Of a stretch of DNA of 64,000 bases, positions 31,841 through 45,177 are shown in pieces. The stretch spans positions 90,576 through 154,575 of the forward strand of contig JAHQWJ010000080.1 in the NCBI GenBank assembly GCA_029856125.1, written 5' to 3'. Under the pieces are notes generated by a model that did not search any database, was not told the DNA's origin, and saw nothing but the letters and a program-made list of their open reading frames with translations. The DNA is from Promethearchaeia archaeon (GTDB lineage: Archaea; Asgardarchaeota; Lokiarchaeia; Sigyniarchaeales; SOKP01). Position numbers and translations under genes: made by a program. How positions within the stretch are numbered: position 1 is the first letter of the stretch; the number at the start of each line of letters is the position of its first letter.

Positions 31841-32584
31841 ATGAATAAATTCAGGATCATTCCAGTTATTGATATTTTAAATTCTCAAGCTGTACACGCA
31901 ATTAAAGGAGAACGAGAAAAATATAAACCCTTGAAATCAGTTTTAATTAATGATAGCAACCCAACACGAATTGTATTAACATTAAAAAAAAAGTATTTAT
32001 TCAACGATTTTTATATTGCAGATTTGGATGCTATACTTCAAAGAAAGCCTAATATCACAATCCTTTCAAAAATACTTGATATTCCTGAGGTTGAGATCAT
32101 GATTGACCCCGGAATAATAACCAATAAGGATGTAGAAAAATATTTTAACCTTAATCTAAAATCGTTGATTTTGGGATTAGAAACCTTAAGAGACCTAAAA
32201 GTTATTACAGAGTGTTTAGAACTGTTTGATATTAACAAGATTATAGTAAGTATTGATATGTACAACGAAGTAATTCAAACTAATATAAAGGAATTTAGAA
32301 GTCAAGATATACTTGAAATCATTTCCAAAATTGAAGATTTAGGCGTAGTTAATATAATTTTACTTGATCTCTTTAAAGTTGGACAGAAAATAGGAGGAAT
32401 TTCCGCACTTTATTTAAAGATAAGAGAACAATTTAATGGCGAAATATTTGTTGGAGGTGGAATAAAAGACATCCAAGATATTAAGGGTTATAAAAGTAAT
32501 AACTTCTCGGGAGTTCTGATTGGGACTGCTTTACACGATGGTTCTATAAAAATCGAAGAACTAAGAAGTTTTCTCAAAAGTTAA
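31841..32584 (+). CDS. HisA/HisF-related TIM-barrel protein (C1-cofactor-linked type)
   Basis: 'IIPVIDI...AVHA..GER..Y.P', 'YIADLDAI', 'GGGI', 'GTALH.G'. Confidence 0.8.
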   Translation: MNKFRIIPVIDILNSQAVHAIKGEREKYKPLKSVLINDSNPTRIVLTLKKKYLFNDFYIADLDAILQRKPNITILSKILDIPEVEIMIDPGIITNKDVEKYFNLNLKSLILGLETLRDLKVITECLELFDINKIIVSIDMYNEVIQTNIKEFRSQDILEIISKIEDLGVVNIILLDLFKVGQKIGGISALYLKIREQFNGEIFVGGGIKDIQDIKGYKSNNFSGVLIGTALHDGSIKIEELRSFLKS

Positions 32585-33111
32585 TCAATAAAAATAACAC
32601 CCGAGCCTGAAACATTTAAAGATTTCTTACATACGGGGCAAGCGTGCTTTACTCTAACCCAATCGGTTATGTGTTCCTTATGGGCCTTCGCTTCGCAAAT
32701 TGGACAGCCAGCCACTTCGTCAAATATTTCAATATTCTTTCCACACACTGCACACTTGGTTTTTGATACCGTAGAAATCCGTATAACTTCTTTTTTTATA
32801 TCGAGCACAACATTATCTGTGTTTTCAGCTGTAGGATTAATTTGTTTCAATTCGGTCCGGGTATCAACACAAAAAATGGTTCCCTCGCTATCATCTTTAC
32901 GATTCCCAATCCAAACCACTTTACCCTTGAAATAACTAGATCCCTCGTTTTCTAACGAGAGGCTTAACTTTCGATCTTCCATCACATATGTTTGAATTAC
33001 TTTGGTATATTTCAACCCATCTAAATTTGTGGATATTTGTTTAACCACTTCAAATGGTTCTCTGAATACTTCATTTGTTATGTCGACTTTCGTGATTTCT
33101 TTCGGGGACAT
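32581..33111 (-). CDS. RING-like Zn-finger domain protein
   Basis: C-terminal CAVC-x11-CPIC-x4-HKEH-x3-W-x6-CPVC. Confidence 0.75.
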   Translation of the reverse strand: MSPKEITKVDITNEVFREPFEVVKQISTNLDGLKYTKVIQTYVMEDRKLSLSLENEGSSYFKGKVVWIGNRKDDSEGTIFCVDTRTELKQINPTAENTDNVVLDIKKEVIRISTVSKTKCAVCGKNIEIFDEVAGCPICEAKAHKEHITDWVRVKHACPVCKKSLNVSGSGVIFID

Positions 33112-34146: not shown

Positions 34147-34977
34147 ATGTACGAAAAGGAATTAGGAATAATTGGTGTTGGTAAAATTGGTTCTGCTCTC
34201 TTAAAAAGAATAATTTCTACTAATACGATCGAGAGGAAAAAAATTATTATTTTTGATGTAGATGAAGAGAAATTGCACGATCTATCAAAAAGCTTAGATG
34301 TAGATTGTGCTAATAGTAATACCGATTTAGTTAATTCATCTAAACATGTTTTAATTGCTGTTATCCCTCAAGTAATGGATATTGTTTTGAGAGAAATAGA
34401 ACCTGCAATATCTGTACAGCATGTAATAATATCTATTGCAGCAGGAGTTTCTTTTACTCATATAACTAAAATTATTACTAAACCTGTATCATTAATACGA
34501 ATAATGACGAACACTCCAGCTCTTGTAGGCGAGGCAGCTACAGCGATAGCTCGTAACGAAAATGTCAAAGAATACCAACTAGAATTCGTTAAAGAAATAT
34601 TCAATTCTGTAGGGATGGTAGTAGAATTAGAAGAAAGACATTTAGACGCAGTAACTGGTTTATCTGGAAGCGGTCCTGCTTATATATTTATAATTATTGA
34701 AGCTTTAGCCGATGGGGGTGTAAAAATGGGCTTACCTAGGGCTATTGCCCTAAAACTAGCAGCTCAAACCCTTTTAGGTTCTGCAAAACTTCTATTGGAA
34801 ACTAACATACACCCCGCAGCACTGAAAGATATGGTAGCAACTCCAGGAGGGACGACTATAACTGCAATACACGAACTTGAATCTGCAAAAATAAGAGCAA
34901 CACTAATCAGAGCGGTGGAAGCAGCTACATTAAAATCCAAATCGTTAAATTCAGCAAAAACAAATAATAATCAATAA
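34147..34977 (+). CDS. proC: Pyrroline-5-carboxylate reductase
   Basis: GVGKIG, 'ISIAAG', 'GLSGSGPAY', 'TPGGTT'. Confidence 0.95.
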   Translation: MYEKELGIIGVGKIGSALLKRIISTNTIERKKIIIFDVDEEKLHDLSKSLDVDCANSNTDLVNSSKHVLIAVIPQVMDIVLREIEPAISVQHVIISIAAGVSFTHITKIITKPVSLIRIMTNTPALVGEAATAIARNENVKEYQLEFVKEIFNSVGMVVELEERHLDAVTGLSGSGPAYIFIIIEALADGGVKMGLPRAIALKLAAQTLLGSAKLLLETNIHPAALKDMVATPGGTTITAIHELESAKIRATLIRAVEAATLKSKSLNSAKTNNNQ

Positions 34978-35026: not shown

Positions 35027-36238
35027 ATGGTAAAAATATCCAAGTTTGGAGAAGATTTTTTACTACTGGCACTCAGAATTGACAAACATATTAAAGGATA
35101 TGTTGATTTTTATATTGGTCCAGAAAAACTCCGGCAAATTGTAGATCGTGAATCTCTAACAGCTCCAAACACGTTATTAAATGACTCCACCAATTTAATA
35201 AAACAAGTGGGAGCTCAAGGTTACGACAAAGAACGCGAACGGTATATCGAAAAGTTATTAGTAGCTATGAAAACCTCAATAGAAATTTTAAAAGGTTCTG
35301 AAATTTCTATTAAAGATCAATTTTTAAAACTTTATGATGTAGATTTACAACCTGCTAAAGAAGCGGAGTTGGATAATGTAAAGGAAGAGATTGATGAAGC
35401 TTACAAAGGATCTGGAAGCTTAGAAGAACGCATGAATAAATTAAGAATTACTCGTAAAGTTCCTGAATCAAAGGTTTTTAAATTCTTTAAAAAAGCAGTT
35501 GACATAACAGAAAAAAAAACTAATGAATTATTCATCGATCTATTACCAAAAAATGAAAGAATAATTATAGATATAGTAAAAAATAATAATTCAAGCGAAA
35601 AAGTAAAATGGAGCTGCTATAATTGGTACTTGGGTAAATATGTTAGTCGAATTGAGGTTAATCCTAAATACCAAATGTATTGGACTGCTTTATTAACATT
35701 TTCCTCTCATGAAACATATCCTGGACATCATACTGAGTTTGCTATAAAGGAAGAGAGGCTTTATCGCAAGTTAAACCAATTTGAACATTCCATCTTAATT
35801 CTCCATTCGCCAAAATTAGTGATTTCTGAGGGAATCGCCAAAAAAGCAATTTCTATACTCTTTTCAAATCAAGAAGTAGCAGAAATTGGGTTAAATGAAT
35901 TTTGTTCAGATCCATTAAAAGAGGCCTCTCTTGAAGAGTTGGAGCTACAAGATATAGTAAAAGTCAAAATTCCTCTTTTTTGGTACAATTTTGCATATCA
36001 TGCTTTAGTTGATAAGTATAATAAGAAAGAACTAATGCGATATGGAAAAAATTTTGAAATTTTTAGTGATGAAGATTTGATTACAGGAATAGAAAGAATG
36101 TCAAATCCCGCACATTCAAGTAACGCTTTTATGTATTACCTTGGAATTAATATTTTACAGAAATATGGAGATGTTCCTTCATTAAAAGACTTTCGAAATT
36201 TACTCGTTAATCCAATTTTACCATCTGATTTAATTTAA
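35027..36238 (+). CDS. DUF885-like putative zinc metallopeptidase (cytoplasmic)
   Basis: 'HETYPGHH' plus downstream 'SEGIA' (gluzincin-like third ligand) and 'YYLG'; no signal peptide. Confidence 0.7.
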   Translation: MVKISKFGEDFLLLALRIDKHIKGYVDFYIGPEKLRQIVDRESLTAPNTLLNDSTNLIKQVGAQGYDKERERYIEKLLVAMKTSIEILKGSEISIKDQFLKLYDVDLQPAKEAELDNVKEEIDEAYKGSGSLEERMNKLRITRKVPESKVFKFFKKAVDITEKKTNELFIDLLPKNERIIIDIVKNNNSSEKVKWSCYNWYLGKYVSRIEVNPKYQMYWTALLTFSSHETYPGHHTEFAIKEERLYRKLNQFEHSILILHSPKLVISEGIAKKAISILFSNQEVAEIGLNEFCSDPLKEASLEELELQDIVKVKIPLFWYNFAYHALVDKYNKKELMRYGKNFEIFSDEDLITGIERMSNPAHSSNAFMYYLGINILQKYGDVPSLKDFRNLLVNPILPSDLI

Positions 36239-36442
36239 CACTATTCTTATAGCCCTTTTAAAGTTTGATGGTTACAAAAGAGTATTTTTAAGTTTCTGAA
36301 TAAGGGAATTTACTAATTTTTATTGCAGTTTAAATAAACTATTTGAAATTATAATGTGTAATAAGAAGAAGTGTTTTAGATTCGTATTCGAACTTCTAAG
36401 AATAGGTTAAAAACATTTAAATTTATATATAAGGTGAAAAAA

Positions 36443-36472
36443 ATGCCTGGTCAAGCTGGCGGGATACCCTAA
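36443..36472 (+). CDS. Micro-ORF 1, MPGQAGGIP
   Basis: AAGGTGA SD 5 nt upstream; followed by a hairpin and T tract; repeated at 37178. Confidence 0.65.
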   Translation: MPGQAGGIP

Positions 36473-36475
36473 ACT

Positions 36476-36547
36476 GGTGCTGTTTATAAGAGTAATTTAC
36501 TCGAGTGCTCTTTATAAACCCACCATTTATTTTTCTTCCTTTTTTTT
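36476..36547 (+). terminator. Hairpin + T-tract after micro-ORF 1
   Basis: GGTG..TTTATAAGAG...CTCTTTATAAA..CACC followed by a T-rich run. Confidence 0.55.
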
Positions 36548-36805
36548 AGGGCTTTAAATAAATTTTTTGAATTAATATTTTGATTTAAAAATTTTAAAAT
36601 TTAAAGTAATTAAAATTAAAGCCTTAAATAGGATTAACAGATTAACTAATTCTTACTGTTCACTTTTCATTTTGTTAGGAGTTTATATAATCTTTTTCAA
36701 ATTATAAATTGATTAAGAAAATGGTTCTGAATGTTTCTATTCAGCTTTAAAACTATAAATTAACTAAGTTAAGCATATTGCACTTATAATTAAAAGTGAG
36801 ATAAA

Positions 36806-36838
36806 ATGCCTGGTGAATCAGACTCTATTCCAAAATAG
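36806..36838 (+). CDS. Micro-ORF 2, MPGESDSIPK
   Basis: AAAAGTGAGATAAAATG initiation context, almost identical to that of rpa1; GATGTTT/AAACATC hairpin plus T tract downstream. Confidence 0.6.
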   Translation: MPGESDSIPK

Positions 36839-37177
36839 ATGTTTTATATATAAACATCATATACTTCCTTTTTTTTCTTTAAAATTTATAATTTTTTTTA
36901 CAATTAATTTCTAACCAAAATGTACACTGAATGGTCTAATTGGTTTACTTTAATTTTTATTATATCCAATTTATGTAAATAATTTAATAATTTTTGGCGG
37001 TTACAAAGGAGGATATTTAAATCCTAAAACTTGTTGACTGTGTAAATTTTATTGAAGTTTAAATAAACTTTTTAAAATTAGAATGTGTAAGAGAAAAAAG
37101 TGATTTGGATTCGTAATCCAAATTTGACTTCTAAGTATAGGTTAAAAACATTTAAATTTATATATAAGGTGGTTAAA

Positions 37178-37207
37178 ATGCCTGGTCAAGCTGGCGGTAT
37201 ACCCTAA
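37178..37207 (+). CDS. Micro-ORF 3, MPGQAGGIP
   Basis: AAGGTGG SD; differs from micro-ORF 1 only by synonymous GGG>GGT. Confidence 0.65.
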   Translation: MPGQAGGIP

Positions 37208-37256
37208 ACTGGTGTTTTTTATAAGAGCACTCCAAGATAGTGTTTTTATAAAAGTA

Positions 37257-38240
37257 TCATATATTTTCTTTTCTTTTTCCTTTAAAATTAATTGTTTCTT
37301 GATTGTTTATTGTTAGAGTAAATGTTTTGATTTCAGGTTTATATGTGTTAAATATTTCATATACTTCCTTTTCTTTTTCGCTTTTGCAAAAAGCATACAC
37401 TGAACGCCCTAATTGATTCATGCTTGCTCCTATAATATCCAATTTGTGTAAATTGTTGAGTAAATCCTTTGTTTTATCTAAATTTAAAATCTCCATAATA
37501 TGTGTATTTTCTGCAAATTGGTATGATACTTTAACAAAATTCTTATAATTGGGTTCTAATAATAATTTGTTCAAAGCAAATTTACCTGCTTCCTTTATGT
37601 TTGAGCTTAAAGTCTTATCTGATAATATCGATTTGGTTTTTATCGTTCCAAAAGAGCCACAAATTACTAAAAGATCGTTTGGACTTTTTAAACGCTCGTG
37701 ATTACAAGGATAACCAGGTTCTTTTAAAACGCACAAACCTCTTCCTAATTGACCACAAACAGTACCTAATCCCGTTTTATTAATAACCTCAGCAATGTGA
37801 GCTACCCTTCCGCTTTCTAAATTAGTCAAGTTTAGGTTCAATAGTTTATTCAGTCCAAAAATCGTTCCTAGTGCTCCTGAACCACTTGCTCCGTACCCAC
37901 AGCCAACGGGTAAATCAAAAAAATGTTCTATTTTTACATTAATGGGGTAATCAATCAGTTTTCTAATATAATCGAATACGAAATATGTTGTTTCTGCTTT
38001 ATTATCTAATTTTTCTTCATTAATATAAATTGTACACTGACTTTGCTCTTCTTTTTCGAGCTTTTTACAAGATATCACCGTTTTCCCTACCCCACTTACG
38101 TTAAACCCGGCTCCTCGAGAGCCAATTTCTTCTGGATTTTTAATTGGAATCCCGTTTTTTTTATCTACAATTTCAAAAAAACCCGAAATTCGGTGGGGAA
38201 CTTCAACAATAATTTTATTTGTATTACTTACCATACCCAT
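37257..38240 (-). CDS. Pantoate kinase (GHMP family)
   Basis: 'P.RISGFF', 'GSRGAG', 'PVGCGYGASG', 'AH.AEV...TGLG', 'SMNQLG'. Confidence 0.9.
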   Translation of the reverse strand: MGMVSNTNKIIVEVPHRISGFFEIVDKKNGIPIKNPEEIGSRGAGFNVSGVGKTVISCKKLEKEEQSQCTIYINEEKLDNKAETTYFVFDYIRKLIDYPINVKIEHFFDLPVGCGYGASGSGALGTIFGLNKLLNLNLTNLESGRVAHIAEVINKTGLGTVCGQLGRGLCVLKEPGYPCNHERLKSPNDLLVICGSFGTIKTKSILSDKTLSSNIKEAGKFALNKLLLEPNYKNFVKVSYQFAENTHIMEILNLDKTKDLLNNLHKLDIIGASMNQLGRSVYAFCKSEKEKEVYEIFNTYKPEIKTFTLTINNQETINFKGKRKENI

Positions 38241-41789: not shown

Positions 41790-42410
41790 CTAGACTCCAA
41801 AAATCTGCCTTAGCTCAGAATATATTTTTGAAAGCTCTGATATGATAGGTGTGTTGTTTTGCTGAAGATAATAATTAATGTATCCCGAAAGACCCTCACT
41901 GTCTTTAATCCATTCTAAAAACGACTGAACCTCTCCCTTCAGTTGAGGATCTATGTTGGCTCCGACACTTGGTTGAGTTTTTCCACCAGCAGTACCTAAT
42001 TGGGAATTTGGATCTTTATAACTTTGTTTTGAGCTTAACTCTGAAACAGCTCTTGCTGTATCCATAGTAGCCCCCATTGGTTCCCCATCGGGCTCGAGGT
42101 AAATAAGTATTTTATGTTCCTCGTCTTTCGCCCCAATAATGTGTCCTTCACCTCGAATTGAAGTAGCAACTAGTCTTTCTGACGTACACTGAAGAACTGA
42201 ATATTTCACGCCTGAAAGTATTACGAATTGCGCGTTCATACTATTCCAGCTAGAAATTACTTTACCGACTTCTGAACTAATATCCCAGTTGTCTGTTGTG
42301 TAAAGAATATTGTTACTTCCTTGAACTACAGCAGCGGCAATAATACTTGGATCTTTTTGTATTAAATTGTAAACAACGGTAGCTGGATCAGTTGACATTT
42401 TTTTCTCCAA
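41790..42410 (-). CDS. Asgard profilin-like protein with C-terminal helical extension
   Basis: 'TTDNWDIS', 'GVKYSVLQCTSERLVATSIRGEGHII', 'YLEP' match the Loki-profilin pattern; about 80 extra C-terminal residues. Confidence 0.8.
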   Translation of the reverse strand: MEKKMSTDPATVVYNLIQKDPSIIAAAVVQGSNNILYTTDNWDISSEVGKVISSWNSMNAQFVILSGVKYSVLQCTSERLVATSIRGEGHIIGAKDEEHKILIYLEPDGEPMGATMDTARAVSELSSKQSYKDPNSQLGTAGGKTQPSVGANIDPQLKGEVQSFLEWIKDSEGLSGYINYYLQQNNTPIISELSKIYSELRQIFGV

Positions 42411-44361: not shown

Positions 44362-45177
44362 TTATATGTATAGTGACTTTCTCTTATCCTCAGTATCAAC
44401 AAACTGAAATGTGTTTAAATCTTTTTCCAATTGGTCTCTTTTATTTTGTAGATTTTTAGTTATATCCTCTATATTATCAAGTGAATATTTCTTTTTAATT
44501 GGTAAAGCAAACGATTTCTTAAGCATCTCCAAAAGTGTTATTGACGCCTTTAAATCAGTTATATCTTCATTCACCATAGCGATGTTATCTGTTTCTGCTA
44601 AAAGAACTATTCCGTCTAAATCAAACCGTGCTTTTGCTAGTGTAGGGATTAAACCATTAGCACCAATAATTACCCCTTTTTGAATCTTATCACAATTGGT
44701 TCTAGCCAGAAATTTCTGTAATAAATCTCGGTTTGTCGAACTTGCGTAAATTTTTGGAATTTTTGTATCGATTTTACGACTATTTACTGGGTATGCTCCT
44801 AGGGCTATTATCAACTTGACTTTACATTGAAATATAATTTCCGAAAGGAAATTTGAAATTCTATAGATACCTTTAGGTGTTAAACTCTGAGCGTCAGCAG
44901 TAATTAAAAAAATATCCCTTTTTTGTTCAGGATCTTTCCAAAATAAAATCTCTGCTTTAGGAGCGGATAGCATACTATCGTCCACTATAGCTCCCGCTGG
45001 ATAATCATCAAATATAAAATCCATTAAGTTTTTAGCGTCTAATTGTCCTATTAAAGAATCAATAGCAAATTTTCCGACATCGGCTATTCCTGGCATGCCT
45101 AAAATACATATTGGATCATTAAAATCTTCCTCGTTAAAATCAAAATGTTTAATTATTCTTATCCCAGACTCTGTCAT
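44362..45177 (-). CDS. PAC2-family proteasome assembly chaperone
   Basis: 'ILGMPGIADVGK', 'ITADAQ', 'ALGAY', 'G.IIGANGL', 'LLAET', C-terminal HbYX-like LYI. Confidence 0.88.
   Translation of the reverse strand: MTESGIRIIKHFDFNEEDFNDPICILGMPGIADVGKFAIDSLIGQLDAKNLMDFIFDDYPAGAIVDDSMLSAPKAEILFWKDPEQKRDIFLITADAQSLTPKGIYRISNFLSEIIFQCKVKLIIALGAYPVNSRKIDTKIPKIYASSTNRDLLQKFLARTNCDKIQKGVIIGANGLIPTLAKARFDLDGIVLLAETDNIAMVNEDITDLKASITLLEMLKKSFALPIKKKYSLDNIEDITKNLQNKRDQLEKDLNTFQFVDTEDKRKSLYI

Follow-up and report, generated by a model that had tools for sequence, protein, structure and literature searches.

The 64,000-nt stretch analysed here, referred to below as the window, contains an apparently empty gap of about 1 kb between a peptidase-like gene and a convergent kinase gene. 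A first-pass annotation had read three ORFs of nine or ten codons in this gap as an unannotated peptide system. The locus therefore raises the question of whether these micro-ORFs are genes and, if so, with which proteins their products would act. The features of the locus are as follows.

34147..34977, + strand: proC, left border of the insertion site, outside the system
35027..36238, + strand: DUF885-like zinc peptidase by motif and model, clade A, 403 aa, predicted cytoplasmic; HETYPGHH plus E268; enzyme half of the cassette
36256..36559, + strand: unit 1, with upstream region, SD, ORF, hairpin and T tract; the cassette's own peptide gene
36433..36437, + strand: SD GGTGA of unit 1, 5 nt before ATG
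36443..36472, + strand: unit 1 ORF, MPGQAGGIP; near-identical peptides in orthologous cassettes
36475..36549, + strand: hairpin and T tract after ORF 1, putative transcript 3' end
36667..36881, + strand: unit 2, probably left behind by an earlier cassette at the site
36806..36838, + strand: unit 2 ORF, MPGESDSIPK; SD GTGA at 36796–36799, 6 nt before ATG
36849..36990, - strand: decayed pantoate kinase gene 3' end, 45% aa identity to residues 260–297
36983..37287, + strand: unit 3, diverged second copy of unit 1
37178..37207, + strand: unit 3 ORF, MPGQAGGIP; SD GGTGG at 37168–37172, 5 nt before ATG
37257..38240, - strand: GHMP kinase (probable pantoate kinase), right border of the insertion site, outside the system

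All three ORFs lie where the first-pass annotation had placed them, each behind an SD-like sequence at a spacing of 5–6 nt, and the matching anti-SD was found in the genome's own 16S gene, whose 3' end is GGATCACCTCCT (C84:104185). The hairpin and T tract claimed after each stop were also present (z -3.3, -2.5 and -3.4 for units 1, 2 and 3); the hairpin of unit 2 was weak (-6 kcal/mol), and that of unit 3 with its T tract overlaps the pantoate kinase stop. The 5' regions of the units folded no better than shuffles (z -1.2 to -1.8), and an Rfam search of the units matched no known RNA. The pattern SD + M-P-x6-P-(K)-stop was expected 5e-5 times per shuffled kb of the gap. The 3.7-Mb genome contained seven ORFs of this pattern, all seven of them members of the peptide family described below.

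Alignment of units 1 and 3 gave about 300 bp in common, with 242 identities, 50 mismatches and 23 gap positions; about 270 bp had been reported before. The repeat is no assembly error, because independent assemblies from other studies covered the units with 0–4 differences, and an assembly artefact was thus ruled out as its source. The flanks of unit 2, described earlier as diverged, were indeed less like those of units 1 and 3, but homology was retained (61–69% identity). They were closer to a cassette of another genome, the best match of the upstream flank being the peptide gene after proC at locus L073 of genome G099 (score 88, next 52). Besides the micro-ORFs, the gap contains a decayed pantoate kinase 3' end. 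Because of the G099-like flank and this kinase end between units 2 and 3, unit 2 is probably an orphan, the relic of an earlier cassette. For unit 3 we infer arrival together with a new copy of the kinase end, the decayed end being the scar of that event.

The search for homologues in related genomes that the first-pass annotation had proposed yielded 107 peptide genes around enzyme homologues and at orphan sites, and about 30 more beside a regulator; as the genomes are all kin, such counts overstate independence. The family was confined to one Lokiarchaeia family, with homologues labelled Promethearchaeota or Ca. Lokiarchaeota. Peptide length was mostly 9 aa (range 8–12), and 100 of the 107 genes had exactly nine codons, all 100 stopping with TAA. 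In these 100 genes, P2 was present in 98, Gly or His at position 3 in 97, and P9 in 99. Positions 4–8 were variable, with Gly/Asp frequent at position 6 and Ile/Val/Ala/Thr at positions 7–8. Instead of the fixed MPGxxxxIP proposed earlier, the motif was M-P-[G/H]-x5-P with a hypervariable middle. The core was rich in G, I, V, Q, A, T, E and D, with 0.4% K and no basic or hydrophobic stretch, and the peptides carried no export signal. A single genome can contain 15 or more nine-codon genes.

That the peptide itself is under selection had been argued from conserved residues changing only synonymously. With three copies this argument is circular, and across the family the middle residues show no conservation; selection was nevertheless evident from the family as a whole, pN/pS being 0.10 at P2/G3/P9 versus 1.21 in the core (32 pairs picked by flank similarity). 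The filter used to collect genes favours prolines, and a profile of the upstream flank, trained on known units, was added as a filter-independent check: 61 units were found, and 61 of 61 carried an intact ORF. All four Pro codons were in use across the peptide genes. Core identity fell to 57% while the enzymes were still 85–92% identical. Core-versus-flank rates in two pairings (0.32 against 0.17 for the unselected flank in one; 0.25 against 0.20 in the other) are only suggestive of a core changing faster than neutral. Judged by these patterns of conservation, the three micro-ORFs are real members of a large coding family under selection. A reading as RNA is unlikely because the constraint follows codons and no Rfam match was obtained. 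Viral carriage was rejected: IMG/VR held no enzyme homologue, and the 13 viral pattern matches had no SD or lay inside genes, on par with the out-of-frame control (15).

By motif and predicted fold, the gene upstream of the array encodes an intact DUF885-like zinc peptidase. The protein has no signal peptide and scored 19.9 bits against DUF885 (PF05960), below the gathering cut-off of 32.4. Its model (pLDDT 95) matched three DUF885 structures (3iuk, 3o0y and 3u24) with Z 20.5–22.5 over 349–362 residues (rmsd 3.4–4.3), a whole-length fold match that leaves little room for other domains; no TPR match was found. The HExxPGHH motif agrees with DUF885 as well, and the differences are the length (about 400 versus 550–590 aa) and the lack of a signal peptide. 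The gluzincin-type His/Glu zinc motif and the downstream Glu ligand were present, and H228, E229, H234, H235 and E268 were invariant in 71 enzyme sequences. Weaker fold matches (Z 10.5–13.6) were MATCAP, M3, M32, Dcp and ACE. The M2/M3/M32 gluzincins (ACE, Dcp, PepF, carboxypeptidase Taq type) have short peptides or C-termini as substrates, and peptides ending in Pro bind to ACE; the present enzyme differs from these gluzincins in its 9–13% identity and longer inter-histidine spacing, and none of them is encoded with its own micropeptide.

Within the order, 37 of 151 genomes encoded the enzyme; these belong to two genera of a single family, and no genome gave more than 10 matches. A PDB sequence search with the enzyme, the MFS protein or the regulator returned nothing, and searches in NCBIfam and PADLOC gave no real match. 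A literature search found no paper assigning DUF885 a substrate or a peptide partner.

The proposed link between the micro-ORFs and the upstream HExxPGHH protein was borne out in two enzyme clades, in which a peptide gene stood at 65 of 69 loci taken together. In clade A, peptide genes lay downstream on the same strand in 46 of 49 rows and at all seven metagenome orthologues; in clade B, a convergent peptide gene was present in 12 of 13 rows, the exception being a contig end. None of the 14 single-copy clade C loci had one. Peptide genes were likewise absent beside the bacterial enzyme homologues (0/73) and at four loci of distant Asgard homologues. Across the genus the peptide pattern followed enzyme presence, and a reversed-pattern control gave 0–1 matches. 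The distance from enzyme gene to peptide genes was 90–950 nt. A shared origin of clades A and B was not rejected (p-AU 0.745). Y218 and Q308 were common to the peptide-linked clades and variable in clade C.

Peptide core and whole enzyme were correlated with a Mantel r of 0.22. No excess co-variation was seen between the core and a presumed enzyme pocket that was assigned by analogy and not from coordinates (p 0.57), which counts against a strict lock-and-key pairing whether the peptide is a ligand or an antidote. At L081 (3240–3420) and L082 of genome G007, where the enzymes have no family peptide, inspection by eye showed a downstream hydrophobic ORF in convergent orientation, about 37 aa long and with FRPFF at its end.

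Comparison of the loci indicated that peptidase and peptide form a mobile two-gene cassette. It occurred in at least 15 gene neighbourhoods, and the same site was taken by different enzyme subclades across genomes. Corresponding sites in other genomes held a peptide gene alone, an enzyme remnant, or nothing. No transposase and no conserved third gene were found in the cassettes at about 110 loci. The pantoate kinase, to which a link had also been suggested, was rejected as a partner: many relatives have proC next to pok with no cassette in between, and the gene only marks an insertion site. At L028, a second peptide gene follows an enzyme 3' remnant that is 98% identical to another subclade with similar peptides, and at L078 one follows the remnant of a different enzyme (82%). 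The intact relatives of both remnants carry a near-identical peptide. The arrays would thus be largely leftovers of displaced cassettes, and some orphan peptide genes were decayed; the array in the window would be mostly a build-up of duplicated and orphaned units.

Two further sites were noted on contig C84 of genome G000: a second intact enzyme-peptide cassette at 66245–67672, and at 44472–44634 a clade B enzyme remnant overlapped by a convergent peptide gene.

The peptidase was not the only partner. A second one was found in a regulator of 1,205 aa (G000:C25:27797–31414, L427) with a divergent peptide gene. A remnant of the regulator (C136:64671–64817, L428) also has a divergent peptide gene, with the same peptide core as at C25. 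The regulator was present in 109 of 135 genomes of the family and was not found in 24 genomes searched outside it. Modelling of its first 700 residues (pLDDT 85) matched residues 14–204 to M1 aminopeptidases (Z about 8), with LREAY where HExxH is expected, and residues 205–370 to Lrp/AsnC proteins (Z about 8; NirDL 10.8); its Atlas neighbours were AsnC-type HTH proteins. The predicted protein would therefore combine a metal-less zincin-like domain with Lrp/AsnC-type units, an assignment for which the Z scores are middling and on which motif, PDB and Atlas matches agree. wHTH and RAM units are shared with Lrp/AsnC regulators; the differences are that several units are fused behind a zincin-like domain and that the ligand is proposed to be a peptide encoded by a gene instead of an amino acid.

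A divergent peptide gene lay 150–600 nt upstream of the regulator at 31 of 85 loci, the remaining 54 having none under the filter; with the same filter the background was 1.8% of G000 genes. Regulator and peptide were found together in near-complete genomes without a detected peptidase (G013, G014, G017 and G018), and regulator-linked peptides also occurred in genomes with only clade C enzymes. Some of these peptides had 8 or 11–12 residues or ended in Gly, and in several genomes a second identical or near-identical copy lay elsewhere. None of the eight genomes with Gly-ending peptides had an enzyme match, a hint that links the enzyme to the terminal Pro, although kinship confounds this comparison. 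The enzyme-linked and regulator-linked classes of peptide may act separately.

At the regulator site, the peptide gene is followed by an MFS gene throughout the genus, and this MFS gene clade had a peptide gene upstream in all members of the genus examined. The standing of the MFS gene as an obligatory partner was weakened, because the orthologues in the sister genus had no peptide gene and genome G112 had regulator and peptide without the MFS gene. In the sister genus (L314–L316), a small Cys-rich ORF (zinc-ribbon-like, about 45 aa) replaces the peptide gene before the MFS gene. At L300 (G019), the family-like ORF before the MFS gene has an ATT start after a good SD, either a rare start codon or decay. 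Upstream of the regulator at L415 (G066), a 36-nt unit is repeated in tandem three times. Every unit has an SD-like site and an ORF of 10 codons, and in two units the ORF ends in SWR.

By these comparisons, the peptide family and its two partner proteins are real, and what they do we infer. We favour, with about even confidence, the reading that the leaderless, proline-capped peptides are regulatory ligands binding zincin-fold proteins. A ligand is the best reading for a peptide whose gene sits next to that of a catalytically dead zincin domain, and peptides present without an active enzyme argue against obligatory maturation. The first-pass annotation had left pheromone, RiPP-like precursor and peptidase modulator unranked; the present evidence favours a ligand role and disfavours macrocyclisation. 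Methionine aminopeptidase would leave, from such an ORF, an octapeptide with Pro at both ends, and ordinary exopeptidases remove proline-ended peptides poorly. Each unit would be transcribed singly and translated, and the octapeptide produced by methionine aminopeptidase, resistant to common exopeptidases at both ends, would call for a dedicated peptidase. The variable middle would serve as an identity code. The dead-peptidase regulator would read the peptide and alter transcription, and the DUF885-like enzyme would be the dedicated partner of the neighbouring peptide, either held off by it or trimming it. Trimming, for example by removal of the C-terminal Ile/Val-Pro dipeptide as Dcp/ACE relatives do, would set the lifetime of the signal. 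New cassettes with new codes would come by recombination, displace old enzymes and leave orphan peptide genes; in the window, unit 1 would belong to the resident cassette, unit 3 would be a second copy acquired later, and unit 2 would have been orphaned. A more tentative extension, possible but not the likelier outcome, is a cell-to-cell peptide language of Lokiarchaeia, in which the MFS protein exports leaderless proline-capped octapeptides, the dead-peptidase/Lrp factor reads them and mobile cognate zinc peptidases control their turnover; each genus would have dozens of codes.

The cassette dynamics are explained equally well if the peptidase is a poison that harms the cell (or the virus-infected cell) unless its cognate micropeptide fills the active site, the arrays then being orphan immunity genes. 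The mobile 1:1 cassettes, the number of paralogues per genome and the enzyme remnants beside surviving peptides fit this, as do the intact active site and the inhibition of ACE-fold relatives by proline-ended peptides (8qfx, 4ufb), and a mobile two-gene module with many paralogues is a trait shared with type II toxin-antitoxin systems. It is nevertheless unlikely, since clade C and the bacterial homologues live without a neighbouring peptide, regulator-side peptides persist where no enzyme was found and the regulator link stays unexplained. The presumed pocket gave no co-variation, PADLOC no convincing match, and orphan survival would also follow from small target size, some orphans being decayed. 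Maturation of the peptides by the enzyme is distinctly unlikely; here the peptides would be RiPP precursors in which the enzyme, for instance, replaces the terminal Pro by the N-terminal Pro, and the resulting cyclic heptapeptide would leave through the MFS protein. Promiscuous RiPP enzymes typically combine a conserved pocket with substrates whose core is hypervariable and whose ends are fixed, the pattern seen here, there is an MFS neighbour, and Pro at both ends suits a transpeptidation with like leaving group and nucleophile, as in Connectase (PMC7980362). Yet the ORFs end at Pro after nine codons with no leader or follower, there is about one enzyme per one or two peptides and not one for many, some peptides end in Gly, and the four near-complete genomes named above have family peptides without a detected enzyme. 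The chemistry is also unsuitable: zinc peptidases, to our knowledge, form no acyl-enzyme.

A cis-acting role, as a ribosome-arrest or leader peptide with Pro-stop like TnaC or as a structured RNA with an incidental ORF, is very improbable. The uniform TAA stops, 99 of the 100 after Pro and with a hairpin a few bases on, and the attenuator-like layout of the MFS site would suit it. However, the co-oriented regulated gene downstream of a TnaC-like leader is absent here: as had been argued before, the peptides are not leaders of a following gene, the next gene being convergent in the window and at about half of the sites. The use of all four Pro codons under a constraint that follows codons, and the Rfam and folding results, also oppose it.

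The regulatory ligand reading invites comparison with known peptide systems. MSDIN/POPB cycloamanides and cyanobactins have dispersed precursor genes with a hypervariable core and a terminal Pro. The present family shares the hypervariable core between conserved ends but has no leader, follower or serine protease, and enzyme copy number scales with peptide number. The microcin C cluster resembles it in its minimal peptide gene, MFS exporter and nearby peptidase, and is further marked by a terminal Asn and an adenylating enzyme. In the present family the terminal residue is Pro in 99 of 100 nine-codon peptides and not Asn, and no adenylating enzyme or conserved third gene accompanies it. RRNPP systems encode a small propeptide of 10–100 aa with a Sec or PptAB-type signal region for secretion (PMC10075063). 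The present peptides lie at or below the lower size bound, and the whole ORF of nine residues has no such signal; for the adjacent receptor of 250–500 aa, the 403-aa enzyme fits and the 1,205-aa regulator is outside the range. RRNPP receptors also carry TPR repeats, for which the enzyme, with no TPR match and most of its length aligned to DUF885, would have little space. Rap-Phr systems (PMC10075063, PMC5199041) are similar in pairing a protein gene with an adjacent small peptide gene, in many divergent alleles per genome, in gain by transfer, in local duplication of the peptide gene and in orphans. They differ in having a secretion signal and a propeptide; the host here is archaeal and the partners are zincin-fold. 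The gene logic is thus like that of Rap-Phr, but by its sequence features the cassette is not an RRNPP member.

No peptide signalling system is known to us from Asgard archaea. A literature search found neither such a system nor a description of this peptide family, whose nine-codon genes are invisible to annotation. In these archaea, the nearest relatives of eukaryotes among prokaryotes, the peptides may represent a signal system not described so far. They also provide a first ligand candidate both for DUF885-like proteins, whose structures are solved, and for an unstudied regulator that most genomes of this Lokiarchaeia family encode. If the cell-to-cell language exists, it would be built from parts unlike any bacterial one. 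Short Pro-ended peptides under ACE-fold peptidases echo eukaryotic peptide hormones, and homology is not claimed.

Three observations concern neighbouring sequences. At L294–L297, about 150–280 nt upstream of a CdhD-like gene, a purine/pyrimidine hairpin region was kept in four genomes and could be a regulatory RNA. In the window, a 176-aa protein encoded at 32581–33111 (- strand) contains a RING-like zinc finger that scored below the Pfam cut-off, and a 206-aa ORF at 41790–42410 (- strand) looks by eye like an Asgard profilin extended at its C-terminus.
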